From Alphaproteobacteria bacterium (lineage in GTDB: Bacteria > Pseudomonadota > Alphaproteobacteria > Rs-D84): a stretch of 64,000 nt of DNA. Location: positions 14,038 to 78,037 of the forward strand of contig JAFQTD010000036.1 in the NCBI GenBank assembly GCA_017409215.1, written 5' to 3'. Under the pieces are notes generated by a model. It saw only the letters and a program-made list of their open reading frames with translations, was not told the origin of the DNA and ran no database searches. Both the position numbers and the translations under genes were made by a program. Below, in pieces: positions 218-24,694 of this stretch. Position 1 is the first letter of the stretch; every line of letters begins with the position of its first letter.

Positions 218-1777
218 TTATTTCACCCCCACTATTTCTGCATCCGCGAACAGGTCCATTGCGCTTGCGACCAACGGGTCTGCGACCAGTTCTTCTTGTT
301 TTTGTTCTGACATTGTGTGCGTATGTACAGATTCCATTACGCGTTCTAATGCCCACTGGCGACCGGTTTTATCAAACAGCCACGATGACAGTTTATGTGT
401 AAAATCTGCATCACCCTTGCGGTCAAAGAATCTGATTTTACCATCAGAAAACTCTGCGATTTCTATATTAGAACTATAGTAAGAGTACAACAAAATCTCT
501 TTTGCGGATTGCAGTGCTTGCGCCAACTGAGCCGCATCAGATATCGTCAATTTTTCGGATGTTGCACTGGGTTGTGTTTGTTGTGCCATACGGTCTGCCA
601 AAATATTTTTCACATCGCGTACCCGCTTTTCTGATTCTTGCTGTTTAAGGATTTCTGGCACAGACGGCATATCTGCAATATGCATCATTCGTATTATCAG
701 CATATCAAAGCATTGTTTCTGATTGCCTGCAGCCTGCATTTCTGGTACTGCAGCCACCATAACCTGCCATATTCTGGACAAAGTGTTTAGTGAAGTTTTT
801 GTACAAATATCCTTTATTTGTTCGCGTTGTTCAGCAGTGTATGGTGCGTTTGATGCATCCCCTGCATGCAGGGCAGGGTGCATACGCGTTGCCCAATGTG
901 TCCATTCCATCATATCGATTAACAGCATTGACAGGTCTGCGCCATTGTTATATATAGAATCAACTGTGTTCAGTGCAGCTGCCGTATCACCAGACAACAG
1001 TGTCTTCATAAGGTCCATAACCACACCGCGGTCAGCACGTTTCAACATATCCAAAACGGCTTTTTCATCGACCTTGCCACCGGTTTGTGCGATTGCCTGG
1101 TCCAGCAAGGACAGTCCGTCGCGCACAGACCCGTCTGCGGCAGATGCCAATAATTCGTTTGCGCCATCTGACAGTTCAACATTTTCCTGCTGTGCAATCC
1201 ATGCAAAGTGCCGTTTTAGTGTTTCGACAGGGACACGCACCAAATCAAATCGTTGGCATCTGGACAAGATTGTCACAGGCACTTTCCGAATTTCTGTTGT
1301 TGCCAGAATGAATATAACGTGTGCAGGCGGTTCTTCCAGTGTTTTCAGCAGTGCATTAAAAGCCGACACAGACAGCATATGCACTTCGTCAATAATATAT
1401 ACACGATATCTGCCATTTGTTGGTCTGTATTGTGCGCCATCCAGTATATCGCGCATATTATCGACACCTGTATGTGATGCGGCATCGATTTCCATAACGT
1501 CGATATGTTGTCCTGCGGCGATTGCGCGACAATTTTCGCATGTTCCACATGGTGTTGCTGTTGCCCCATCGGCAGACAGGCAGTTTAATGCCTTGGCCAA
1601 GATACGTGCAGTACTTGTCTTTCCGGTTCCGCGAATGCCTGTGAAAATATAGGCATGTGCAATACGTCCTGTTTTGATTGCTGTGGTCAGTGTTTTTACC
1701 AAAACATCCTGTCCGATAAGGGATGCAAAATCCTGACTGCGATATTTACGTGCTAATACAGTATAATTACCATTCAT
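218..1777 (-). CDS. dnaX: DNA polymerase III subunit gamma/tau
   Basis: 519 aa. AAA+ Walker A GIRGTGKTSTARILAKALNC, a clamp-loader zinc module CxxC, and length and architecture typical of DnaX. Confidence 0.95.
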   Translation of the reverse strand: MNGNYTVLARKYRSQDFASLIGQDVLVKTLTTAIKTGRIAHAYIFTGIRGTGKTSTARILAKALNCLSADGATATPCGTCENCRAIAAGQHIDVMEIDAASHTGVDNMRDILDGAQYRPTNGRYRVYIIDEVHMLSVSAFNALLKTLEEPPAHVIFILATTEIRKVPVTILSRCQRFDLVRVPVETLKRHFAWIAQQENVELSDGANELLASAADGSVRDGLSLLDQAIAQTGGKVDEKAVLDMLKRADRGVVMDLMKTLLSGDTAAALNTVDSIYNNGADLSMLLIDMMEWTHWATRMHPALHAGDASNAPYTAEQREQIKDICTKTSLNTLSRIWQVMVAAVPEMQAAGNQKQCFDMLIIRMMHIADMPSVPEILKQQESEKRVRDVKNILADRMAQQTQPSATSEKLTISDAAQLAQALQSAKEILLYSYYSSNIEIAEFSDGKIRFFDRKGDADFTHKLSSWLFDKTGRQWALERVMESVHTHTMSEQKQEELVADPLVASAMDLFADAEIVGVK

Positions 1778-1862
1778 AACTAAAACTTCCTTTTAAGGTT
1801 AAGGATAACAAAACATTGTCAAAATTCAACAAATAAAAAGCGCCATAACTGGCGCAGACAAG

Positions 1863-2189
1863 TTAATTTAAATTCGTAATAAATTCTGGCAGAATTATAT
1901 CTTCGTCATCAGATGATTCTGTTGAATCTGTGGTGTTATCTGTGGCGTCAATGCTTGCGATTTCTTTTTCTGCAGCTGCCTTTTCCTTTGGGTCACGTGT
2001 AGAATCGATTTTACCTTGTTCTGCATTAACGATGCGCCCATAATGCTCTGCTGTTTGCAACAATCTTTCGCGTTCGACTTCATCAGTTGTTTGACGTGCC
2101 AAATCAATATATTGTTTTCTTTTTTGGCGCCATTTATGACAGCGTTGAATCATCTGTCCCACATTGGATTGATTTTTTTTGTTTTGCAT
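1863..2189 (-). CDS. DUF4167-like small basic/acidic protein
   Basis: 108 aa. A QTAEHYGR motif resembles the QHAEHY signature of DUF4167. The tail is acidic and Ser/Asp-rich. A minus-strand rho-independent hairpin (GCGCCAGTTATGGCGC+T5) follows at 1835-1855. Confidence 0.5.
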   Translation of the reverse strand: MQNKKNQSNVGQMIQRCHKWRQKRKQYIDLARQTTDEVERERLLQTAEHYGRIVNAEQGKIDSTRDPKEKAAAEKEIASIDATDNTTDSTESSDDEDIILPEFITNLN

Positions 2190-2345
2190 ATCTTATCTTT
2201 TTAACAGGAAATAATCTTATACAACAGCAGTTTTTTTAAACCGCCATTATGGTTAACGGATTTGATACTAGAACATCTTAAAAGCAATTGCAATAATTTT
2301 TTTCTGTTGCTATGCTATGAACAGGACCAAGGGGGGAATTTAAGT

Positions 2346-3701
2346 TTGAATCAACAACGTGGAAATTTCTTGATGCAGGCATTATTAGCTGTCGGGCTAA
2401 TATTTGCACTTGTGCCCTTTATGGTTCGACGTGTTGCAGACAGAACCGTTGACAGCAAGATGTCAACTGCTGTTCAACAGATAGAAACCGCCCAAACGGC
2501 GGCCAAGATTTTTATTCGTGAAAATGCAAAAAACATAAATTACAACACCACAATTGTTTCTGGGAATGATTTTGCAGATATACTTGAACCGTATGGTTTG
2601 CCACTTGGTTTTGTTCCCAAAACCCCATTGGGACAGGATATTGCGCTGGTTATACAAAAATCGCCCAGTGATATTACGGCATATTTAGAAATAAGTGGTG
2701 GCAGGTTAAATATGCTTGAACGCGCAGAATTGGCGCGTCGTATTGGTTTTTATGCGGTTTCAACAGACGGTGGTATAAATGTTGGTATTGAACTGGGGGA
2801 TATGTATTCTGACGTTGTTCGCAGGAATGAACCAAATATAGACAACAGTGGATTTTTGGCAGACCTTGATATGGGTGGTTTTGAATTAGAAAATGGTGGC
2901 AGTTTATTTTCAATAAATGGGGTGTTTGACAGCGCTGGGTTTAATACGCTTAGTATAACAGGCACAGAATCTGGACGCAAGGCACGAAACAAAATTGGGC
3001 AAATTGTCACAAATAAATCAGTTTTTCAAAGCATAACGGGTGAATCAGCGCTTAGTATAAATCGTGGAACGTTATTTGCAAATTCTCTTAATACAAAAAC
3101 TATATCAATGTACGGTGATACGGGAAATTTAACAGCCGAAGATGTATCGATATATGAACTTTCTATGACGGCGGGGCACACCAGTTTTTCTGGTCCGTCC
3201 GATTGGTTGGTGCATGGAAATGTCAAGACAACAAACATAAATCTTAGTATGGAACGATTGGATATTTCGTCTTTTTTGAATGCGACACGTGGTCAAGAGG
3301 TTTATATTGACGACCAAGCGCTGACTTATAACTCAAAGTCTGGCATAGAAACAAATATAATTTACACGTCAAATATAACAGTGCGCGACCAGACGTCAAA
3401 CGCGCTGTCCGGTGGTAAATCTGGTGCGATAATATTGGACATTCGTCCTGCTGGAACGACTATGTTGCCGGATGCGTATGTATCAGACATAAACAACGAA
3501 GGATTTCAGATTTTGGAAAAGCCTTTGGACGATACAACAAGGTTTGTTGGGTGTAAAGAAATCATAGACGGATACGAAGGTGTATATAACAAATCATCTT
3601 TGTCGCAATACTTGATTTGTCAGTATGTTTACTGGCAACGTCTTGAAAAAAGAATCGATGCAATGAAATGTTTAAAGTCGGGAAAAGATGGCTGTATATA
3701 A
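2346..3701 (+). CDS. large pseudopilin-like protein (GspK-like: prepilin-type N-terminus without Glu+5)
   Basis: Probable TTG start at 2346, 9 nt after an AGGGGGG SD, giving MNQQRG|NFLMQALLAVGLIFALVPF. The leader ends in RG and is followed by a hydrophobic helix. The rest is polar and Ser/Thr/Asn-rich, as in pilus-tip pseudopilins. The track ORF runs 2262-3701 and an ATG alternative lies at 2373. Confidence 0.55.
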   Translation: MNQQRGNFLMQALLAVGLIFALVPFMVRRVADRTVDSKMSTAVQQIETAQTAAKIFIRENAKNINYNTTIVSGNDFADILEPYGLPLGFVPKTPLGQDIALVIQKSPSDITAYLEISGGRLNMLERAELARRIGFYAVSTDGGINVGIELGDMYSDVVRRNEPNIDNSGFLADLDMGGFELENGGSLFSINGVFDSAGFNTLSITGTESGRKARNKIGQIVTNKSVFQSITGESALSINRGTLFANSLNTKTISMYGDTGNLTAEDVSIYELSMTAGHTSFSGPSDWLVHGNVKTTNINLSMERLDISSFLNATRGQEVYIDDQALTYNSKSGIETNIIYTSNITVRDQTSNALSGGKSGAIILDIRPAGTTMLPDAYVSDINNEGFQILEKPLDDTTRFVGCKEIIDGYEGVYNKSSLSQYLICQYVYWQRLEKRIDAMKCLKSGKDGCI

Positions 3702-14787: not shown

Positions 14788-14861
14788 TGGGGTGTCGTCT
14801 AATGGTAGGACAAGAGATTTTGGTTCTCTTTATCATGGTTCGAATCCGTGCGCCCCAACCA
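14788..14861 (+). tRNA. tRNA-Gln (anticodon TTG)
   Basis: A full cloverleaf was folded by hand. Acceptor UGGGGUG/CGCCCCA carries the U1-A72 pair typical of bacterial tRNA-Gln. D stem is GUCU/GGAC, anticodon stem AGAGA/UCUCU, loop UUUUGGU. T arm is CAUGG-UUCGAAU-CCGUG. Discriminator A and CCA are encoded. Confidence 0.85.
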
Positions 14862-14898
14862 ATATTCAAACGCCCCTGATGGGGCGTTTTAATATTGG
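14857..14898 (+). repeat. 42-bp direct repeat copy 1 (tRNA-Gln 3' end / att-like core plus terminator hairpin)
   Basis: AACCAATATTCAAACGCCCCTGATGGGGCGTTTTAATATTGG is identical to 16085-16126. Confidence 0.8.
14868..14890 (+). terminator. rho-independent terminator after tRNA-Gln
   Basis: AAACGCCCC-TGAT-GGGGCGTTTT. The same hairpin recurs inside the 42-bp direct repeat at 16096-16118. Confidence 0.6.
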
Positions 14899-15054
14899 CT
14901 TTGTTGCGCCCGTTTGATTTGAAACATCGTCCGCCTTTGGCGTGACAGGTTCGACTATGAGTAAGCGAAAACAAGCCTTGCGTAGTTTGAGCGCTAACGA
15001 ATGCGGCGCAGTGTCGGCACTGCCGACCGAGCCAATCCGTGCGCAATTTTTACA

Positions 15055-15214
15055 GTCCGAAAGTCAAATTTCGATTTTTTTCTTTCTAAATATACTTTCG
15101 AACCGCGTATAACACTCTAAAAACATTCGAACAAAGCATAATATTACAAAACCAACATAAAACCGCTCTAACCAGCATGTCTGTTCAATATGGTTGTGGG
15201 GTGCTGGCAAAACT
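15055..15214 (+). repeat. 165-bp cassette-boundary repeat, copy 1 (hairpin TTCGAAAGT...ACTTTCGAA plus inverted att-like arm)
   Basis: Roughly 75% identical to 18097-18262. It ends in TGTTCAATATGGTTGTGGGGTGCTGGCAAAAC (15183-15214), the reverse complement of the right-hand arm at 16067-16099. Confidence 0.7.
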
Positions 15215-15222
15215 AATAGATT

Positions 15223-16020
15223 TTATTTTACTTTTCTACAGATATATAACAAATGATTACTGTATCCTTGTTGATCTAATCTTTCACAGGTCCTAAAATG
15301 CCACTCTAAAAAAGCCTGATAATCTTTCTTTGGTAAATCCTCAATCAACTCACGCAAAACAGGTCCAATTCCATCGGCACTAACATTTGTTATATATTTC
15401 GTATTCGTTTTTGCAAATAACTTCTTGAAATCTTCAACATAAAAAGCAGCAAAGATTTCTTCTGGAATATCTGCTACTCTACCTTCTTTATCCATGCATC
15501 TGGTAAGCAAATCATAACATTTATGATGTCTTAAACCATATGTGGTCATTATCGTTGCACTTGATATGTATGCAAACATACAAACGCCGTTTTTCTTGGC
15601 CACACGAATTGTTTCTTTGATTGCTTGATTTTTATCTTTTTTATTAAACAAATGATACATTGGTCCTAAATTCAAAACCATATCAAAAGAATTATCTTTG
15701 AACATGCTTAAATCCAGCGCATCGCCAACCATACATTGAAAATTTTTCAACTTACGAGATTTGCGTTTCATTATTTCAACGTATTTAGGGGTTAAATCCA
15801 CAGCCGTAACATCGTAACCCATCTTTGCCAAAGCAATCGAATACCGCCCAGTTGCGGCACCAATTTCAAGTATCTTTGCACCTGGTTTCAAAAATTTTTG
15901 AATATACCGCATAGTCGTCAAATATTCCATGTTATGCGCCCGGTCTTTGATTAACCGAGAATCTTCATCATAGTCAGTATAATTGTTTATAATGATATCT
16001 TTATGTTTATTTAGTGTCAT
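15223..16020 (-). CDS. class I SAM-dependent methyltransferase
   Basis: 265 aa with methyltransferase motif I ILEIGAATGRYSIALAKMGYDVTAVDL. An extended -10 promoter TGGTATAAT lies at 16047-16055 (minus strand) and inverted att-like repeats flank the gene. Confidence 0.8.
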   Translation of the reverse strand: MTLNKHKDIIINNYTDYDEDSRLIKDRAHNMEYLTTMRYIQKFLKPGAKILEIGAATGRYSIALAKMGYDVTAVDLTPKYVEIMKRKSRKLKNFQCMVGDALDLSMFKDNSFDMVLNLGPMYHLFNKKDKNQAIKETIRVAKKNGVCMFAYISSATIMTTYGLRHHKCYDLLTRCMDKEGRVADIPEEIFAAFYVEDFKKLFAKTNTKYITNVSADGIGPVLRELIEDLPKKDYQAFLEWHFRTCERLDQQGYSNHLLYICRKVK

Positions 16021-16084
16021 ATTATAACCTTTATTTAATCATGACAATTATACCATATCAACTCGCGTTTTGCCAGCACCCCAC

Positions 16085-16126
16085 AACCAATATTCAAACG
16101 CCCCTGATGGGGCGTTTTAATATTGG
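16085..16126 (+). repeat. 42-bp direct repeat copy 2
   Basis: Identical to 14857-14898. It is preceded by CACCCCACAACC (a degenerate tRNA acceptor 3' strand). A further tRNA 3'-end copy GTGCGCCCCAACCA at 16246-16259 and a terminator at 16269-16294 follow. Confidence 0.8.
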
Positions 16127-16401
16127 ACGGGGCCAAGGTTCGTAATCTGCAACGTTAGTTGCCGGTTCGACAATGAGTAGATTTGAGAAGCGCAGCGCCA
16201 TCAAATCGTCAGGAATGCCCCGCAGGCGAAAGCCGAGGGAATTGAGTGCGCCCCAACCAAGATGTGCAACCGCCCGTTTCTGGGCGGTTTTTTGTTTGTT
16301 TTCTATTATTTTCACTGAGTTCGAAAGTTGGAGTTAAAAAATAGTGAATTTTTGATACTTTCGAACTTTTGTGGTATAATCTCAGAAAAGGATGAATTTT
16401 A

Positions 16402-16947
16402 ATGCAACCGTTATCAAATTTTCCGCAAACAATCAAAACTCCACGATTGGTGTTGCGGGTGTTGGCGCCAACAAAAGAAAACGCAGCAAAGATTTTGAAT
16501 ATTATTGAACAAAATCGTGATTATCTTATGGAGTGGCAAGGTCATTTTGGCGAATTAAAAACCATTGATGATGTGGTGGCATATTTAACAAAACGTGCTA
16601 ATCAAATTAAAACTAATCAAGGAGTCTGTTTTTATATTTACAATAACGATAATATTATTGGTCGAATTCGTTTTTTTAATATTCAAGACAATGGATGTGA
16701 AATAGGATATTGGTTGATAAAATCTGTAAATGGCAACGGATTTATGAGTGAAGCACTGCAAGCATTAGAAACAGAATTATTCAAATTTGGTTTCAGCAAA
16801 ATTACATTGGATATAGACAATGGAAATATTCATTCAGAAAATTTAGCGATACGCAACGGGTATAAATTGGAAAAACGCTTGCCAAATGCTTCATGGGCAA
16901 AATGTGTTGGTAAATGCGATTCATTGATTTATGTAAAAGAAAGATAA
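16402..16947 (+). CDS. GNAT-family N-acetyltransferase (RimJ/RimL-like)
   Basis: 181 aa with a GNAT fold (YWLIKSVNGNGFMSEALQALETELFKFGFSKITLDID). TGGTATAAT at 16372-16380 and RBS AAAGGA upstream. Confidence 0.8.
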   Translation: MQPLSNFPQTIKTPRLVLRVLAPTKENAAKILNIIEQNRDYLMEWQGHFGELKTIDDVVAYLTKRANQIKTNQGVCFYIYNNDNIIGRIRFFNIQDNGCEIGYWLIKSVNGNGFMSEALQALETELFKFGFSKITLDIDNGNIHSENLAIRNGYKLEKRLPNASWAKCVGKCDSLIYVKER

Positions 16948-17086
16948 TATTTTAATAAAATTTCTTTTTCATCCCATCAAGCTCTCGCCCAATCTCCGCC
17001 AATTCAGTTCGCGAACTGCACAGACACCCCAACCAAAATAAAACAATGCCCACCAGGGGGCAAGTCTTTGTTCGGAATACAAGTTT

Positions 17087-17836
17087 CTATTCGTGGGTTG
17101 ATTGGTTCTGTTTTTGCAAAATAATTTCATTAACAATTTGTTTAATGCGTGATGGGGCCATAAATAAATTTGGCGCATAATCCAGCACAGTATAAAAAAG
17201 TTTTTGGTCTTGGTGTATCTTGTTCCACCAACCAAGCCCTTTATTACATTGTGTTATAAAATACTTAATGTCTTTGGGGTGAAATCTGGATGTGACCCCA
17301 ATCAACAAATCATACGCATTTGTATGATTGTTAACCGGGATATCTTGCAATACAGGGTTTAACATTTTTATTTCGTTAACCATGTTTTCCATATTCATCA
17401 ATGCAACATTCTGATTTTTGTTGCTTGTAAAATGCGCTATTATTTTTCTTTTTTCTTCGTCATTCAATTCGCCCGTTACACTGTTCAAAAAGTCTAAATA
17501 TTGCTGTTTCTCTTTGGCTGTTGCATCTGGGGCGCCTTGGAATATATAATCGACATACAGTTCTGGATTTTCAATACGCAGTGGTTCAAACAAACCCAGA
17601 TAATACATATTGTTCATTACTTTTTTTTCATAGTCGGCTTCAGTAATACCATCAGGAAACTTATATTGGTGTGAAATCGGACATGCAGTAATAAAGCCAT
17701 CATCGGCCAGTCGACGTTCAAAATTCACCGCAGATGACCAATGCCCATTTTTAAACACAGCTTCCTTATCAAGGATATTGCTTATCACCTTTTGTATTTT
17801 TTTTGCATTTGAAAAATTTGAATTAGTTATTTGCAT
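17087..17836 (-). CDS. hypothetical protein (orphan, island-encoded)
   Basis: 249-aa ORF with a GGGGAA RBS and no recognisable domain. A degenerate direct att-like copy lies downstream at 17024-17066. Confidence 0.5.
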   Translation of the reverse strand: MQITNSNFSNAKKIQKVISNILDKEAVFKNGHWSSAVNFERRLADDGFITACPISHQYKFPDGITEADYEKKVMNNMYYLGLFEPLRIENPELYVDYIFQGAPDATAKEKQQYLDFLNSVTGELNDEEKRKIIAHFTSNKNQNVALMNMENMVNEIKMLNPVLQDIPVNNHTNAYDLLIGVTSRFHPKDIKYFITQCNKGLGWWNKIHQDQKLFYTVLDYAPNLFMAPSRIKQIVNEIILQKQNQSTHE

Positions 17837-18096
17837 ACGTTCCCCTGATTCATGCTGTTTATTGTATAGTATCGTCTTGTGTTTTGCAAATTTATAAACA
17901 ATTATTGATATTCTTTCCGAATATAAACCGTGGGAATTGGTAAATTATTTTGCGTTTAGTTCCAAAGATGCTGCATTGGAATTTGAACAATATCTTAAAA
18001 CAGGTTCTGGACACGCATTCGCAAAAAGACATTTTTGGAAGTAATTTATCAAGGGGCCGTAGCGCATTCCAGAGAGCAAAACAAATACCCTTTGAC

Positions 18097-18262
18097 GAGT
18101 TCGAAAGTCAAATTTCGATTTTTTATCTTTTCAAACACACTTTCGAATCCCTTATAACACTCTAAAAACATTCGAACCAACGACAATATCATAAAACTAA
18201 TGAAAATCTGCTCTAACAGGTCTTTTTATTCAAAGTGGTTGTGGTCGGTGGGCGGCCGTCAA
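18097..18262 (+). repeat. 165-bp cassette-boundary repeat, copy 2
   Basis: GAGTTCGAAAGTCAAATTTCGATTTTTTATC...GGTTGTGGTCGGTGGGCGG aligns along its full length with 15055-15214. Confidence 0.7.
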
Positions 18263-18294
18263 GGATTTTATATGCTTTTAAAACGATTTAAAAG

Positions 18295-19578
18295 CTATTG
18301 ATTACCTAAATTTCTGCGTTGTTGCATCTCCATATAATACAAATCATTAAATCGATTTTGTTTCTTTTGTTTGTTCATTAAAATTTGCTGACCTTTTTCA
18401 AACGCCTCTATTTTTGCTTTTGATTCTTCTTTTTTAGGTTCTTTGATTGCTGTTTGTTGTCCATATATTATCCTGTTTTTATGCATATCAGATATTTTGA
18501 TTAATTCATCTGTCGCCTGTTTTTGTACTTTTTCATCGTTGCGCAAATAAGCCTGTTTAATTATACGTCTATAATCGTTTGCTATCCCGTTTGAAATAAG
18601 TCCTTCGCGTGCAGAGCTGCCTATATACCTACTTAGCTTTTCCAGTTCGTATTGAGCAGACCCAAAATCACCATTTGTATTAAATTCATTATAAGCCGCC
18701 ACAAAATCTTTCGCTTTATTAATAACATCTAGAGATTTATATTGAGATTGTACCAACGAAGTTTTATCTAATACATCTAATTGATCGAGCAGTATTTTCT
18801 TTAATCTTTGTGTAGCATCTGTTTTTGATATGCCGCCATCTTTTGCCCAAGACAATATATCTCTGTATTCTTGTTTCATTTGTTCGGAAAGCAAACCTTT
18901 GTCGTTAGCTTCTCTTAGTCCAGCCCACATATTGTCGAAAGAATTAGGATCAAAATCGTTCCCTTTCTTTAAAACATCCGTCAATGCAAATACCGTTTCT
19001 GCCCCCATCTGTTTATCTTGATTCATTTGAGAGGAATTTATCGGTTTTTGCTCTTCTTTTTTAGGTTCCTTGATTGCTGTTTGTTCGATATTAGATAAGG
19101 GCGGTTGTTTGTTTTGATTTTCTTGGTGTTCTTTAATTATATTTTTTTCAACATCAGACATGGGCATCTGCTGTTCTGGAACATGTTGTGTTTTACTTTT
19201 ATGCAGCTCTTGTGTTTCTTTCAAAAAATCAGTTATACCAACATCTAATTTACGCATCGGATCCCACGTATATTCATCGTGCGCATACTCGCCAAGTGCC
19301 GACGATTTTATGTGAGACAAATCATTAGTCATATTGTTATATAATTCATTAAATTTTTCTAATTGAGAATAATCAACCCCGCGTTTAAAGTCTAATTCTT
19401 CATATATAAATTTTGTCAAAGGGTTAAAAGAATTTGCTATAAACTCGTATGCTGTTGCAGCATATGGTTGACCCGATCTTTGCATATGCCCAATCATTTG
19501 TTCTGCTTTTTGTTGTACGCTTAATAGATTCTTAACTATATCATAAAATTTTTCTGCTTGTTCTTGTGATAGTTGCAT
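18295..19578 (-). CDS. hypothetical Lys/Glu/Gln-rich protein with internal tandem duplication
   Basis: Start moved to the ATG at 19578 (RBS GAGAGGAATAAT), because the track start at 19659 lies inside the att-like repeat at 19633-19657. Motif QTAIKEPKKEE occurs twice. The DNA repeat TTTAGGTTC(T/C)TTGATTGCTGTTTGTT sits at 18421 and 19061. Confidence 0.5.
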   Translation of the reverse strand: MQLSQEQAEKFYDIVKNLLSVQQKAEQMIGHMQRSGQPYAATAYEFIANSFNPLTKFIYEELDFKRGVDYSQLEKFNELYNNMTNDLSHIKSSALGEYAHDEYTWDPMRKLDVGITDFLKETQELHKSKTQHVPEQQMPMSDVEKNIIKEHQENQNKQPPLSNIEQTAIKEPKKEEQKPINSSQMNQDKQMGAETVFALTDVLKKGNDFDPNSFDNMWAGLREANDKGLLSEQMKQEYRDILSWAKDGGISKTDATQRLKKILLDQLDVLDKTSLVQSQYKSLDVINKAKDFVAAYNEFNTNGDFGSAQYELEKLSRYIGSSAREGLISNGIANDYRRIIKQAYLRNDEKVQKQATDELIKISDMHKNRIIYGQQTAIKEPKKEESKAKIEAFEKGQQILMNKQKKQNRFNDLYYMEMQQRRNLGNQ

Positions 19579-19684
19579 ATTATTCCTCTCTATCGGTAAT
19601 AATATACCATAAAAAACATAAGTTTTCAAATCGCGCTCCGCCCACTGGCCACAACCCAAAAAAAACCAGTCATACGGCTGGTTT

Positions 19685-20467
19685 TTACTTTACTTTTTGC
19701 GATATGCCTTGCCACATAACTTTCTGTTTCTCGTTTTCAAAAATTGCGATTGGTATTTCATATACGTGGCTTTCAACACCGTTATAAAGTTCTTTGGTTA
19801 GTGCGACGTGCTTTGATGCCGCATTGTGCAATTCTTCAATACGCTTTAGGATATATGTATCGCCTATGTATTCTGGGTATCGTAAATATTCATATTCAAA
19901 TACGGGACTGCCAGTAACGATTTTGTATATCTTGGATATGTCTGTAAAATCAATTTCATCATCACTGTTACGGTTATACCATTGGTAATGTTTGTGGTTA
20001 ATACCTGGGATAGAGTTGATTCTTATATCGTCCAATCGGTCCAAGAATCTTTGTGGATTGATATATTCCAAGTTTGCACGTTTCCCATCAATAGATATGA
20101 CCTTGGTTTGCAAATCCTCAGGCTTGATATAAGTGGGACGATTTGGATTATAAAACATTTTTAAGGTTTCCAGTGTACAGTCTGGCACTTCCAGAATTGT
20201 GTCTTTATTAGTTAATTTATAAGGCACAGATTGCAGATTGATTGTCAGTGGGTGCGGCAAGTTAAAATCCACAGTGTTATAACTTTGAATTACATATTGT
20301 GGCGTACATGTTGTATATGTTAATTTATCCCCAGATTGTGTCAGGAAAACACATTCTGCCCATCTGTATCTGTTGCGGTCGTATTGTGTCCTGTATTCTA
20401 CATTCACAGGACGCGCCATACTTTTATGTTTTTCTAATACATTCGCGTTTAATGGAACGGTTAGCAT
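19685..20467 (-). CDS. hypothetical protein (orphan)
   Basis: 260-aa ORF with no recognisable motif. A terminator-like hairpin AACCAGTCATACGGCTGGTTTTT lies near 19667-19689, close to the stop. Confidence 0.45.
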   Translation of the reverse strand: MLTVPLNANVLEKHKSMARPVNVEYRTQYDRNRYRWAECVFLTQSGDKLTYTTCTPQYVIQSYNTVDFNLPHPLTINLQSVPYKLTNKDTILEVPDCTLETLKMFYNPNRPTYIKPEDLQTKVISIDGKRANLEYINPQRFLDRLDDIRINSIPGINHKHYQWYNRNSDDEIDFTDISKIYKIVTGSPVFEYEYLRYPEYIGDTYILKRIEELHNAASKHVALTKELYNGVESHVYEIPIAIFENEKQKVMWQGISQKVK

Positions 20468-20654
20468 TTTTTTCTCTTATTTCTTTATTCTCTGCCAGTT
20501 CCCCCTGTATGTCGGCATTATAAACAAGGCTGTGCTTATCGCGCAAGTAAAAACACAGTGAAACTTATATTATAAAAATATCAAGACAACATATTACGGA
20601 CTATGCAGAACATTAAACGAAAAAAAGAAGGGCGGTCCCTTCTTTTTCTTCAGC

Positions 20655-21767
20655 CTATACCTTAAAATCTTTGCGTTTACGATTACATTTAGGGTCGGTC
20701 ACACTGGGTGCATTCAGAATAGGCAGATTTTTGGGATTTTGATATTGGCAACCGTGCTCTAAAACAGTCATATCTTGAACGGCCCAACCTCTTCCAAAAT
20801 TATCAAACCCTTTGGCGCTTTTATGCAAGGCCCAACGCTTTGCGGTAATTTGTTGACGTAAATCCGGTCCCTTATAATCCTTGATTGCCTGAAATGTTTT
20901 GGGACCCAAATAGCCGTCTGCGTCTGTTCCGACAATTGATTGCAGTGTTTTTACTAAAACTTTGGCTGTGCCGTTGCCTTGATTAAAGGCAGTTGAAAAG
21001 AAATCGCCACGTAGTGCATCAGGCAGTTGGTTGAATTTATAGTTTTTATAAAAGTGACCATACGCAATATCTTGTGCGTCATGAATAGAAAATTCTGGAT
21101 TGTTTACAGAGTCTGCAAAGTATCTTTCTGTCACACCAAAACAAGTTATTCCCGCCCCATCACCAACATCAGAGCATACAGGTGCTTCGATTCTAAGTTG
21201 TGTAGCCCACGCCTTTTGGAAAGCGGGGTCGTTATGATATTTGTTGTTTGGTGGACAGTACAAATTTGCCACACGACCATCGGTATATTTAATTGCAGGT
21301 GTGCATGACTGATTAAATCTGTTAAAATCTGCCAAGCCAATAGTGTATGCAGGTTGTGCATCCCTGGTGTATTCAATCATATCTTTTATAAAATTATTTT
21401 TGCACGATAAAAAGGTGCTTGTAGTGAACGAGCTATGTCCTGCAAGACAAATTTTCATCAGGTTTCGCGCAGACAAATATCCCTGGTTTTTTGATGCTAA
21501 TTCTTCATACTGCGCAATGGCGTTATTTAAATTCTGTCCTTCGAAATGTTGTGCCAGCGCTACTTCTGCGATGCTTGGGTCGAATAAAATTGCGTTTTCT
21601 CCATCTTTATTAACACCGATATTGTTATCTGGCTGTGGCACGTTTTGCGTCAGTGACAAATCGCCAAGTGAATCCAGTTCGTTTATGATTTCGTTGTGAT
21701 AGGCCAAGGCATTTTGAATCAACAATCCAGACATTGGAATAAAGAGTATTGTAAATATCTTTCTCAT
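20655..21767 (-). CDS. secreted GH108-family muramidase with PG_binding_3 domain and unknown N-terminal extension
   Basis: Start at the ATG at 21767 (AGGAG RBS) gives signal peptide MRKIFTILFIPMSGLLIQNALA. The C-terminal half has the GH108-like block IEAPVCSDVGDGAGITCFGVT and the peptidoglycan-binding block DADGYLGPKTFQAI. The N-terminal ~190 aa are Cys-containing and of unknown fold. Confidence 0.65.
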   Translation of the reverse strand: MRKIFTILFIPMSGLLIQNALAYHNEIINELDSLGDLSLTQNVPQPDNNIGVNKDGENAILFDPSIAEVALAQHFEGQNLNNAIAQYEELASKNQGYLSARNLMKICLAGHSSFTTSTFLSCKNNFIKDMIEYTRDAQPAYTIGLADFNRFNQSCTPAIKYTDGRVANLYCPPNNKYHNDPAFQKAWATQLRIEAPVCSDVGDGAGITCFGVTERYFADSVNNPEFSIHDAQDIAYGHFYKNYKFNQLPDALRGDFFSTAFNQGNGTAKVLVKTLQSIVGTDADGYLGPKTFQAIKDYKGPDLRQQITAKRWALHKSAKGFDNFGRGWAVQDMTVLEHGCQYQNPKNLPILNAPSVTDPKCNRKRKDFKV

Positions 21768-21786
21768 AAAAAAACTCCTGCTTTTT

Positions 21787-22812
21787 TTACAACGCATCAG
21801 AACAATTTTCTGCAACTTCGATTAATTTCTTAATTACACTGATTTGCGATGCGTTAAATGCAGTTGCAACCGCGCTAGAAACAGTTGCGCCTGCAGCCAA
21901 AACATTTGCGGTGGTATTTAAGTTTTTTTCTTTTTGTTCTGCGCCTGTGGTACTATCATTTCGAATGTTTTTGCTGTTTGCAAGTGCGCTGACAATGGTT
22001 CCTGCGCCACCTGTGGTTGCGGTTGCTATTGATGATATTTTTGCACCTGTTGCGCGTTTATCGATTTTCGATAAGTCTATATAGTCATAACCCTCACACG
22101 CTGTGATTACATCAGCGGCATCAAATGTAGGTTCGCCTGAGATTTGTGCTGCCTTATATGATAATCTTAAATCAGACATTGCGTTGATGCAATTTTCAAC
22201 TTGGTCTTTTAATGATTGGTCTGTTTTATTTTTGTCTGCGATAATTGCCCCTGCAACACCTGTCACAGTGGTACCTGCCAACAATCCTGTTCTTAAATTG
22301 CCCAGATTTTTTGATTTTTTCTGCAGTTCATCCGTATTGTCTGTTGCCTCAGCCTGCTTTTCTTCTGAGGTACCAAAATCTTCAAAGTTAAGATTTTCTA
22401 CGTCATTGGAAAGCTGATCCAAAGCACTTTCTGTTGCTTTACCAGCTGTTTGTGTACCTTTAAGTGTTTCTCTGGTTTTCTCCAGTCGTACAGATAATGC
22501 TTTGTCTATACCTGCTTTTTTTATCCCGGCAACTGTTGCGCCGACCCCTAAACCCGTTCCGACACCAGTTATCGCGGTGTTTATTCCGGCCATTTTTTTT
22601 AATTCATCCAGACTATCTTCTATTCCATTGCATTCCCTATAAACAGCGCCCAGCGCTTCGTCCAATGGTAAAGGTTCCGCATCGGCAAAACCAGGGCACA
22701 ACATAACCATAACAACAAAGTGCTTGTAAATTTTCACTGTATTCTCCTTTGCCAAGAATTGTATCATAAATACCAACTTGAAACAAGTGTGAATCTTGTT
22801 TTTTTTTCCCAA
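21787..22812 (-). CDS. secreted Ala/Gly/Thr-rich protein, paralog of 57789-58727
   Basis: Signal peptide ...HFVVMVMLCPGFADA. Shared blocks with the paralog: YxxCxGIxDxLxxLKKMAGINTAIT.VGT..G.GATV.GI.K and KEKNLNT..NVLA......ATA..FNA.QIS.IKK..EVA..C. The true start may be an internal Met near 22767. Confidence 0.55.
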   Translation of the reverse strand: MGKKNKIHTCFKLVFMIQFLAKENTVKIYKHFVVMVMLCPGFADAEPLPLDEALGAVYRECNGIEDSLDELKKMAGINTAITGVGTGLGVGATVAGIKKAGIDKALSVRLEKTRETLKGTQTAGKATESALDQLSNDVENLNFEDFGTSEEKQAEATDNTDELQKKSKNLGNLRTGLLAGTTVTGVAGAIIADKNKTDQSLKDQVENCINAMSDLRLSYKAAQISGEPTFDAADVITACEGYDYIDLSKIDKRATGAKISSIATATTGGAGTIVSALANSKNIRNDSTTGAEQKEKNLNTTANVLAAGATVSSAVATAFNASQISVIKKLIEVAENCSDAL

Positions 22813-22982
22813 GGTGGCGGATAGATATTTTTTGAAAGATGTTAAAAAAATAAAAGGTTTAAATATGATTGTTCGGTCGTCAGATACGGAACAGATAAAA
22901 AAACACGAAAAAGCAAAAATTATATTAAACTTGTGTTGAAATGCATAAATTTTAAGTGTATGATGGTTGCGTTCTAAAACTT

Positions 22983-23057
22983 GCTCCCATCGTCTAGCGG
23001 TTAGGACACCAGATTCTCATTCTGGTAACACGGGTTCGATTCCCGTTGGGAGTGCCA
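22983..23057 (+). tRNA. tRNA-Glu (anticodon CTC as read)
   Basis: Cloverleaf folded by hand. Acceptor GCUCCCA/UGGGAGU, D stem GUCU/GGAC, anticodon stem CCAGA/UCUGG, loop UUCUCAU, T arm ACGGG-UUCGAUU-CCCGU. CCA is encoded. Confidence 0.8.
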
Positions 23058-23217
23058 AGTTTAAAAATATTCTACAAACATATTGACTTTTCTGATTTTT
23101 GTACTATGTTTTGTGTAAAGTAAAACTTTTATACAAAGGTGTAGTACCATGGAAAAAAAGAAAAAAAGTAATTTTAAGGAAAATTTAAACCTGTAGGCGC
23201 TTTCTGTTGCGATATTA

Positions 23218-23592
23218 GTGTCTGGTGGCGCGATGTTTTATCATATTGTTGCGGACCGCTATATTCCGAAGGTATCTGATAAAGAAATTGAAGCAAAAGA
23301 GTTAGAGTTTGCAAGCGACAGTACATTGTACGAAAATTTATTGTACCTTAATCTTCGTCAGCCAGAACAGTATGACAGCATAGATGGATATAGCTATATT
23401 GAAAAAAGCAAAGAAACACTAGACGCACAACGTGCAATGCTAAGGACAAGGGCAGAATTAGAAAAATTAAAGGCAGATAAAAAGATTGCGGATTCTATGT
23501 TAATGGTTCCAAAATATGAACGGTTCAAAAAAAATTGGAAAGAAATTCGTATCGCATATCATACCAATCGTCTAAAGTCATTATCACGCTAA
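23218..23592 (+). CDS. hypothetical protein
   Basis: 124-aa ORF, coiled-coil rich. GTG start in the track, with an ATG alternative at 23233. A bidirectional terminator lies at 23599-23621. Confidence 0.4.
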   Translation: MSGGAMFYHIVADRYIPKVSDKEIEAKELEFASDSTLYENLLYLNLRQPEQYDSIDGYSYIEKSKETLDAQRAMLRTRAELEKLKADKKIADSMLMVPKYERFKKNWKEIRIAYHTNRLKSLSR

Positions 23593-23598
23593 ATAAAA

Positions 23599-23621
23599 CA
23601 AACCGCCATTTGGCGGTTTTT
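23599..23621. terminator. bidirectional terminator
   Basis: AAACCGCCATTTGGCGGTTTTTG between convergent genes. Confidence 0.5.
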
Positions 23622-23623
23622 GT

Positions 23624-24694
23624 TTAACCTAAGGCAGCAGTTATTTGGTCTTGCATTTGAAAAGTTCCCAAAACAACCCATGCAATAATTGCTGAAACTA
23701 TTAATATGCCAATACTGTTTAGAATATTTGAAACGCGCTCCATTTTTCTGACGGATTCTTCCAGATAATCGTTTGCAATTTTATTCAAATTTTCATCAAA
23801 CCCATTCATATCTGCATAAATAATCAAGTCGCCAATAATTTCATCATCTGGGAAATTGCGCCCTGTATTTGTCAGCGCAACCCCCAGGTTATCACCATTT
23901 GCGATATAATGAAGCGTGTTGTCCAAAATGCTACGCAGATATCTGTTTGCATTATCTGCCAACAGTCTAAGTGCATCTGGAATTGTTCCGCCGGCCTTAA
24001 CAATTGCCGCCAAAGACATCAGCCAACTAACAGAAACCTGAATTTTATAAACGTTCCAAGGTGGCAGTTTATCAAAAAGTACACGCAATTTGCCAGACCA
24101 GTTTGCCAGACTTAACCAAACCAAGGAAATCACAAGCGCAAAAACAATAAAAAACACATACCAATAATTAATTGATATTTCGGACAGCACAACCAATGAA
24201 CGCGCCATGCCGCGCCAAACAATGGTGTTGCCTGCAACATCGGCCAACGGTGGCACCAGATAAATTCCAACCATAATAATGATACCAAATGTCAGTGCCA
24301 ACAAAAACAGTGGGTATGCGATTGCGCTGGTCATTGCGCGTCTAATCCGACCTGTTCCTTCTACTACGCGCCCAACATTTTCTAGTGCAACTGCCAGGTC
24401 AGATAAATTCCCAGAAGAAACCAACAGTGTTTCATCGGGTGGCACCCATCCACGTGTGACCTCTGAAAAAGTCATACCGCGCTCCAGACCATATTGCCAC
24501 TGTCGCATAACAATTGCGAATGGTTCGCGTGGCTTTGTGCCATTTTTTGATTCGATTGCTTCCAATCGTTCAAGCGCATTAATCAACGTAAAATCATTTC
24601 GCAATAACGAAGCCAACTTGCGACACAGCGCCATACGTTTTTCCGTACTGGTGCGAAAAACCCATTTTGCATACAGTAATTCTAGTTTATTCAT
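23624..24694 (-). CDS. type II secretion / type IV pilus platform protein GspF/PilC family
   Basis: 356 aa with three TM segments and paired cytoplasmic domains typical of GspF. Confidence 0.85.
   Translation of the reverse strand: MNKLELLYAKWVFRTSTEKRMALCRKLASLLRNDFTLINALERLEAIESKNGTKPREPFAIVMRQWQYGLERGMTFSEVTRGWVPPDETLLVSSGNLSDLAVALENVGRVVEGTGRIRRAMTSAIAYPLFLLALTFGIIIMVGIYLVPPLADVAGNTIVWRGMARSLVVLSEISINYWYVFFIVFALVISLVWLSLANWSGKLRVLFDKLPPWNVYKIQVSVSWLMSLAAIVKAGGTIPDALRLLADNANRYLRSILDNTLHYIANGDNLGVALTNTGRNFPDDEIIGDLIIYADMNGFDENLNKIANDYLEESVRKMERVSNILNSIGILIVSAIIAWVVLGTFQMQDQITAALG

Follow-up and report, generated by a model that had tools for sequence, protein, structure and literature searches.

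The window, i.e., the whole 64,000-nt stretch of contig JAFQTD010000036.1 analysed here, originates from an alphaproteobacterium of the lineage Rs-D84 and contains a perfect 42-bp direct repeat, which begins inside the 3' end of a tRNA-Gln gene and brackets a methyltransferase gene. This locus was probably built by tandem accretion of small modules lacking integration genes at a core in the tRNA-Gln 3' end, with an integrase acting in trans. The 42-mer is a conserved hairpin normally located 3' of tRNA-Gln, 37 of its 42 nt being ordinary trailer. Judged from the sequences at module junctions, the recombination core is most likely the last 9–14 nt of tRNA-Gln (14848–14861, GTGCGCCCCAACCA) and not the 42-mer. 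An initial annotation of the window had interpreted the repeats and the tRNA-end fragments as recombination scars at a tRNA-Gln site of the attachment type. This view is retained, given the empty-site layout of locus L030 and the presence of an integrase at the same junction elsewhere; the proposals that the 42-mer forms the core and that integration was recent are not. Related loci are designated by L numbers. The elements in question are as follows:

14788–14861, plus strand: tRNA-Gln, anticodon TTG (ARAGORN; Rfam tRNA, 57.7 bits)
14857–14898, plus strand: 42-mer copy 1, comprising the last 5 nt of the tRNA and the trailer hairpin (stem 14859–14876/14881–14898, 18 bp, loop TGAT)
14899–15047, plus strand: type A trailer element, which holds GGTTCGACTATGAGTA at 14948–14963 and ends in AATCCGTGCGC (15034–15044)
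15223–16020, minus strand: gene of a class I S-adenosylmethionine-dependent methyltransferase, 265 aa, the cargo of the bracketed block (Pfam Methyltransf_11/25)
16085–16126, plus strand: 42-mer copy 2, which is the native trailer hairpin in a displaced position (the window is collinear with L030 if 14899–16126 is disregarded)
16127–16259, plus strand: type B trailer element with a cloverleaf-like fold closed by GGGGC/GCCCC, ending in GTGCGCCCCAACCA (16246–16259)
16268–16289 plus T-run, to 16294, plus strand: intrinsic terminator after the displaced tRNA 3' end (terminator scan; class T3)

The trailer of tRNA-Gln

Both copies of the 42-mer listed in the initial annotation were found and are exact (14857–14898 and 16085–16126). 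No others occur in the window even at up to 3 mismatches, and none of 100 shuffled windows gave a match. With one mismatch (CCCC versus CCAC) the repeat extends to 46 nt (14853–14898 and 16081–16126; spacing 1228), and the acceptor-strand remnant reported before the second copy is present as CCACAACCA at 16081–16089, also with one mismatch. The two-copy arrangement recurs in the independent assembly L024 and is, therefore, not an assembly artefact. The hairpin starts with the CCA of the tRNA and has a minimum free energy of -25.5 kcal/mol (z -8.2). Its 9-bp GC core is followed by TTTTAATATT, a tail that pairs with the upstream A/T run; a simple terminator scan made no call. Many short-read contigs of this species (L017, L019, L021, L022, L015, L025, and L026) end inside tRNA-Gln or the 42-mer, which agrees with the presence of a repeat and with differences between strains at this locus in the communities sampled.

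The hairpin was searched for in one genome per species, with its flanks (12 nt and 15 nt) fixed and its centre left free. As a result, exactly one match was detected in each of 27 genomes, i.e., in at least 27 related species of Candidatus Enterousia-type and other gut and rumen Alphaproteobacteria. All 27 matches lie directly after C[C/T]CCAACCA; in 23 of them, the hairpin is preceded by the intact 3' part of tRNA-Gln, with T arm and acceptor end. At least 11 variants of the stem top occur between the identical flanks, with complementarity kept. A dispersed terminator element, the alternative named in the initial annotation, is ruled out by this single hairpin per genome, located each time after ...CCAACCA. 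Among the viral contigs scanned, the hairpin had no match, and the R module, a further part of the locus described below, had two unrelated ones.

The top found in the window, CCCTGATGGG, is absent from these variants and is common to both window copies, L024, and L014. The top shared by the window and L014, GCCCCTGATGGGGC, resembles the B-type top GCCCCTTTTGGGGC; the same block in L001 and L002 carries the usual A-type top, GCACCCTTGTGGTGC. Since the A-side hairpin of the window has a B-like top and those of L001 and L002 have an A-type one, the top appears to have been homogenised. We propose that the hairpin flanks are strongly constrained and that the 10-nt top would have been homogenised by gene conversion from the B-side copy.

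Comparison of alleles gives some indication of the age of this layout. L030, from a sister species (MarR 95% and OEP 92% identical), displays the order tRNA–hairpin–type B–CCCCAACCA and is collinear with the window once 14899–16126 is taken out, i.e., it represents the empty-site configuration of the 1,228-bp block. L014, from the same species as the window (MarR 100%), lacks the methyltransferase and possesses one trailer element, type A in its 5' part and type B in its 3' part, joined at GGTTCGAC. L001 and L002 belong to another lineage (flank about 89% identical) and encode a methyltransferase protein identical to that of the window in the order hairpin–A–R module–methyltransferase, with no second hairpin; the right arm of the cassette is followed there by a CACTTCG... 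sequence, which in L014 and L030 is located 3' of the type B end. In L003 (methyltransferase 86% identical), the right arm directly abuts the middle of a type B element. L043 contains hairpin–A, a different cassette, and then CCCCAACCA–hairpin'–B, with the second hairpin clearly diverged. L038 has a cassette, a hairpin, and an A/B chimera joined elsewhere (GAATGC). Hairpins identical to each other occur in the lineage of the window only.

The type B remnant of L003 and the layout of L043 indicate that the two-trailer layout is old and widespread. Constraint together with gene conversion is, therefore, a better explanation than recency for the perfect identity of the two 42-mers. The recent integration suggested as one option in the initial annotation does not agree with the occurrence of the same order, methyltransferase and then hairpin and type B (or a remnant of type B), in a species at only 86% methyltransferase identity. 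The methyltransferase was also rejected as recent cargo: it is syntenic beside tRNA-Gln in species at 86–90% protein identity, and all 20 positions at which it differs from L002 are synonymous. A perfect tRNA-adjacent repeat can be a trailer kept by constraint and gene conversion and is not in itself proof of recent integration.

In all 27 hairpin genomes, the hairpin is followed by a related element of about 135–150 nt, which occurs as types C and D besides types A and B. Several short motifs noticed earlier belong to it. The motif GGTTCGAC(T/A)ATGAGTA is indeed shared by both repeat flanks, at 14948–14963 and 16164–16179 rather than at about 14946 and 16168. The fragment AATCCGTGCGC is present again at 15034–15044, and the 14-mer of the tRNA 3' end at 16246–16259, with its own terminator at 16268–16289 plus T-run. 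These fragments, which had been described as a T-arm remnant and a tRNA 3' end, represent the conserved 3' ends of types A and B; the flanks are not diverged leftovers but two paralogues of a conserved structured element. Type A of the window differs from that of L002 at 2 of 149 positions, as compared with about 11% in the MarR-side flank.

Types B and C fold into a cloverleaf-like shape. Its closing stem consists of GGGGC/GCCCC with a CAC/GUG extension; the 3' strand of this stem is formed by the tRNA-Gln 3' end copy, after which comes ACCA. The other parts are a long hairpin, in which GGUUCGA is invariant, an 8-bp stem whose loop is conserved, and a stem that varies between CCC/GGG, GGC/GCC, and CGC/GCG around a GCAG/CGAG internal loop. 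In an alignment of 10 sequences, 90.5% of the cells were paired versus 31–40% with slid partners, and 8 pairs displayed compensatory changes. In an alignment of 29 sequences, which was fitted to the covariance model and is biased towards it, the corresponding values were 84.5% and at most 42%, with two-sided changes in 16 pairs (105 cells); the covariation score of this alignment was reached by 0 of 500 shuffles. The covariance model recognized only the two expected places in the window, 16126–16259 (147.9 bits, E 4e-31) and 14902–15050 (24.4 bits, E 0.003), and gave full-length matches after hairpins in more than 25 loci.

The survey of Rfam 15, including tRNA-like RNAs, transfer-messenger RNA (tmRNA), and RtT, identified the tRNA alone, also in permissive small-window scans; the remaining families scored far below their gathering scores. 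Reading GGTTCGA...AATCCGTGCGC as the T-loop of an intron-split tRNA or as a tmRNA-like domain was rejected, with the T-stem unpaired and no call made by ARAGORN; in the folds, GGTTCGA pairs inside hairpin P2. The trailer element is a conserved, covarying RNA-like element 3' of tRNA-Gln, which has no entry in RNA family libraries and possibly represents a new family of tRNA-like RNAs.

The trailer of the Escherichia coli tyrT operon, the source of rtT RNA, is made up of repeats about 178 bp long, all of them containing the tRNA-Tyr 3' end. Both loci have a tRNA gene followed by repeated units with a copy of the tRNA 3' end, and the tyrT units yield a processed structured RNA. In contrast to tyrT, no sequence or Rfam match was obtained, and the units described here are diverged paralogues parted by a gene cassette, not near-identical tandem repeats.

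Junctions at the CCA end and a candidate integrase

Across the examined loci, modules are delimited by pseudo tRNA ends, either C[C/T]CCAACCA or CCACAACCA. In the window, repeats of the tRNA 3' end are located at 16081–16089 (1 mismatch), 16246–16259 (14/14), and 17025–17035. The sequences that follow pseudo ends fall into several classes: the hairpin; an AGATGT-type terminator; a AAATAAAACAATGCCC-type hairpin; the CACTTCG leader of a GIY-YIG gene; and an integrase leader. Left partners joined at the same base number 6 for the hairpin and 4 for the CACTTCG leader. The junctions of these unrelated partners lie exactly at the CCA, which implies a shared core of at most 14 nt. Since 9–14 nt of identity is short for homologous exchange, this pattern suggests that recombination is site-specific and takes place at the 3' end of the tRNA.

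A candidate enzyme was found at the same position in other strains. In L020, whose MarR is 100% identical to that of the window, the tRNA CCA is immediately followed by CATATTTATG... and a short open reading frame (ORF), which resembles an integrase N-terminal domain (DUF6538, sub-threshold). Protein P0122 is a longer homologue of this ORF (75% identical to it). An exhaustive search with P0122 revealed P0124 (586 aa), whose first 80 residues are 74% identical to P0122 and which matches Pfam Phage_integrase with 30.4 bits (cut-off 27.1). In L059, the P0124 gene starts 46 nt past the tRNA-Gln CCA, at the same junction, and is adjoined by a resolvase gene. In L056, a decayed integrase heads an island of about 7.5 kb, which ends in a degenerate core and a displaced trailer hairpin; this island end follows the same logic as copy 2 of the 42-mer in the window. 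The same-species alleles L014 and L020 part from the window at or after the CCA. A metagenome scan for the integrase junction returned only chance matches in unrelated contigs.

The array is a tandem series of small modules, linked head to tail wherever the 3' end of tRNA-Gln (...C[C/T]CCAACCA) is repeated. In this clade, the native trailer is composed of the long hairpin and the structured element of about 135–150 nt, whose own terminus repeats the tRNA 3' end. In the window, the tRNA is separated from the resident trailer by the 1,228-bp block, which comprises hairpin, type A, R module, methyltransferase with 23-bp arms, and pseudo 3' end; the resident trailer comprises hairpin, type B, displaced tRNA 3' end, and terminator. 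Because the inserted block starts with its own copy of the native trailer, the hairpin, i.e., the 42-mer, is present twice. A P0124-type integrase acting in trans may insert, excise, and shuffle modules at the core of at most 14 nt; the modules would then behave as cis-mobilizable islets. Deletion chimeras such as L014 may arise when the paralogous A and B elements recombine. This provides a testable map, with a likely crossover core in the last 14 or fewer nt of tRNA-Gln and a candidate integrase known in other strains. A compact cassette array of this kind generates strain-level variation of gene content in an uncultured gut lineage.

Two further kinds of parts recur in these modules, inverted arms and R modules:

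15191–15213, no strand: left arm of a perfect 23-bp inverted repeat, TGGTTGTGGGGTGCTGGCAAAAC, kept in L001–L008
16067–16089, no strand: right arm of this repeat, the last 9 nt of which (16081–16089, CCACAACCA) are a pseudo tRNA 3' end
15054–15199, plus strand: R module copy 1, AGTCCGAAAGT ... ACTTTCGAAC ... ACATTCGAAC ... TGGTTGTGG
16318–16380, plus strand: R module copy 2, partial, with the inverted repeat AGTTCGAAAGT-N28-ACTTTCGAACT; the part homologous to copy 1 lies at 16318–16367
18098–18244, plus strand: R module copy 3, ending in TGGTTGTGG

The outer 9 bp of the arms, TGGTTGTGG and CCACAACCA, represent the tRNA-Gln 3' core in inverted and direct orientation; the inner 14 bp (14–16 elsewhere) are cassette-specific. 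The predicted promoter of the methyltransferase (minus strand, 16076–16047) has its -35 box inside the right arm. Similar perfect or near-perfect arms of 23–25 bp are present on single-gene cassettes in L051 (425–1628), L033 (3578–4421), and L038 (4292–4827). The arm-flanked analogues in related genomes comprise an ankyrin gene and two other cassettes. For the arm beside the gene of a 454-aa protein, no inverted partner was found.

The R module follows the pattern AGTTCGAAAGT-N28-ACTTTCGAACT, then ACATTCGAAC, with TGGTTGTGG last; it was also seen as AGTTCGAAAGT-N-ACTTTCGAAC...TGGTTGTGG. Copy 2 overlaps the best promoter match of the region (TTGATA-17-TATAAT, with TG), which is predicted to drive the gene of a GNAT acetyltransferase. 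In many related genomes, the module is again located 3' of pseudo tRNA ends; it may serve as a promoter/operator or, alternatively, provide arm sites for an integrase.

Competing explanations and known systems

The reading of the initial annotation, namely that the 42-mer itself forms attL and attR of a recent methyltransferase islet and has remained identical through recency or functional maintenance, seems very improbable to us. The repeat does bracket the 1,228-bp block, it is not dispersed, and L030 resembles an empty site. However, 37 of the 42 nt belong to the native hairpin of the whole clade, which is present in species without the insertion, and the junctions fall at the CCA end. The same block occurs in L001 and L002 without a second hairpin; the integrase-borne island in L020, L056, and L059 diverges right after the CCA; and the methyltransferase-plus-B layout is older than the species splits. 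Hardly more probable is a transposase-less cassette similar to a mobile insertion cassette (MIC) or a miniature inverted-repeat transposable element (MITE), formed by the methyltransferase and its 23-bp terminal inverted repeats and located at the start of the trailer hairpin. It would have a possible 5-bp duplication, AATAT, and the similarity between its ends and the 3' end of the tRNA would be secondary. The inverted repeat is perfect over 23 bp, AATAT stands at both arms if these are read as GGTTGTGG...CCACAACC, and analogous arms occur on other single-gene cassettes. Against such an origin, no consistent target-site duplication exists around the inverted-repeat cassettes, the single copy in the window has the same place beside tRNA-Gln in several species, no transposase was found, and the inner 14 nt of the arms vary by cassette.

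Exchange without any dedicated recombinase deserves more attention, although we regard it as unlikely. The hairpin, the A and B elements, the R modules, and the terminators would then act as homology anchors for homologous or microhomology exchange, duplication, and deletion, e.g., through DNA uptake or unequal crossing-over, and the 42-mer would be the best-kept part of a diverged direct repeat of about 290 bp. This would account for A/B chimeras joined at different short conserved blocks (GGTTCGAC in L014, GAATGC in L038) and for a window without an integrase; the identical hairpin tops need gene conversion anyway. It accounts poorly for many unrelated partners joined at one position after ...CCAACCA, where 9–14 nt of identity is short for RecA-type exchange, and the integrase gene and its remnant occupy precisely that junction. 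Site-specific accretion at the tRNA-Gln core is, on these grounds, preferred. Tentatively, and with low confidence, the locus might also be an integron-like platform, in which a tRNA-Gln-specific tyrosine integrase captures and shuffles armed single-gene cassettes in trans at the 9–14-nt core and the trailer is an undescribed functional tRNA-like RNA serving also as the landing site. Its parts would be the cassettes with their own promoter and terminator and 23–25-bp cassette-specific arms, and the trailer whose acceptor-like closing stem ends in ACCA.

A number of observations weigh against accretion by an integrase and against the trailer as described above. No recombinase was detected by Pfam among the 30 window proteins or by a motif scan in about 300 kb of array loci. 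Neither an excised circle nor attP was seen; the attR of the intact integrase element was not recovered, and the core length is deduced from junctions only. The chimera junctions differ (GGTTCGAC in L014, GAATGC in L038), which means that short-homology recombination also acts and possibly plays a larger part in the shuffling than supposed here. Simple integration predicts direct flanks and does not predict inverted 23-bp arms around the methyltransferase. As to the trailer, the invariance of the hairpin flanks was partly imposed by the search pattern, and L003 and the second copy of L043 have different hairpin sequences. The trailer elements show a weak folding-energy signal (z -1.5 to -1.7), single sequences being unremarkable. 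The ratio of G-U to A-C pairs (70 versus 38) leans towards a plus-strand RNA, with a small excess.

Features of a tRNA accretion site were found at this locus: an intact proximal tRNA gene, direct repeats of its 3' end, and presence/absence polymorphism. The ssrA islands of Dehalococcoides have 20-bp repeats, and many of them lack integration modules (PMC3146451). The ICESt1 and cis-mobilizable elements (CIMEs) exemplify tandem accretion of integrase-mobilised islands at tRNA and tmRNA genes (PMC5704250). As in these systems, an intact RNA gene occupies one end and copies of its 3' end separate the downstream islands, many islands have no integration genes, their content is strain-specific, and an integrase is located beside attL in some strains (PMC3146451, PMC5704250). 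Unlike them, the modules described here are 170 bp to about 1.2 kb in size, usually contain one gene, and have a core that is apparently the last 9–14 nt. They also possess recurrent promoter and terminator parts and, in several cases, inverted arms, and the native trailer is duplicated within the array.

Islands of the tycheposon shape in Prochlorococcus (10.1101/2020.12.28.424599) are likewise adjacent to tRNA genes, with full or partial tRNAs flanking the cargo and older elements pushed inward; fragmented integrases and scattered partial tRNAs are found as remnants in both cases. Tycheposons differ in spanning several kb and in encoding a tyrosine recombinase of their own and, often, replication functions; the array studied here has no element genes and belongs to a gut alphaproteobacterium. 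Chromosomal integrons share with it mostly single-gene cassettes of miscellaneous functions (GNAT, methyltransferase), related structured spacers, and short complementary brackets. In contrast to integrons, no IntI was found locally, CCACAAC and GTTGTGG lie outside the attC consensus RYYYAAC/GTTRRRY, the array is anchored at a tRNA, and each cassette has a promoter.

Genomic setting and other cassettes

The array continues downstream of the class T3 terminator with the following features:

16402–16947, plus strand: GNAT acetyltransferase gene (RimL/RimJ-like), the next cassette of the array (Pfam Acetyltransf_3)
17025–17066, plus strand: fourth tRNA-end fragment, CACCCCAACCA (17025–17035), with a hairpin of class T4
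17916–18041, plus strand: 3' remnant of a GIY-YIG gene (about 130 nt; tblastn 95%), followed by R module copy 3

Class T3 terminators also occur in L027, L035, L046, and L047; the class T4 hairpin is of the same type as that located directly 3' of tRNA-Gln in L003. The GIY-YIG remnant together with R module copy 3 (17916–18244) matches the arrangement in L014.

A MarR gene and an RND (resistance-nodulation-division) efflux operon are located to the left of tRNA-Gln. To the right, there follow the methyltransferase (minus strand), GNAT, genes of low G+C content with unknown function, tRNA-Glu, and type IV pilus genes. A total of 5819 homologues of the methyltransferase were found. PADLOC and NCBIfam assigned no specific function to the cassette genes; for the methyltransferase and GNAT, the NCBIfam matches were all sub-threshold, those of the methyltransferase being also generic.

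The region 15000–24000, spanning tRNA-Gln to tRNA-Glu (22983–23057), has a low G+C content (0.34–0.39 versus about 0.41 elsewhere). Its proteins mostly lack a family match; a GH108/peptidoglycan-binding muramidase-like protein is encoded at 20655–21815. The stretch looks like a variable island fed by the tRNA-Gln site. The gene of the 454-aa protein (18295–19659 in the window) has a homologue in L014 (150–700, minus strand), within which a long stretch (...GGCTCCTTGATTGCTGTTTGTTCGATATTAGA...) is duplicated in tandem, an indication that this protein is repeat-variable. Past the methyltransferase, L002 carries at 1572–3508 an AAA_15/AAA_21 ATPase gene and a gene for a 247-aa protein; they resemble a defence-type pair, i.e., other cargo at the same site. 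Additionally, L014 (1860–1985, minus strand) has a conserved leader, about 110 nt long and with several mutually complementary stretches (CACTTCGCG...CGAAGTAGTGTCC...GGACAGGAATAAAAATC), ahead of an 81-aa GIY-YIG gene; this leader is present also in L030, L002, L040, and L041.

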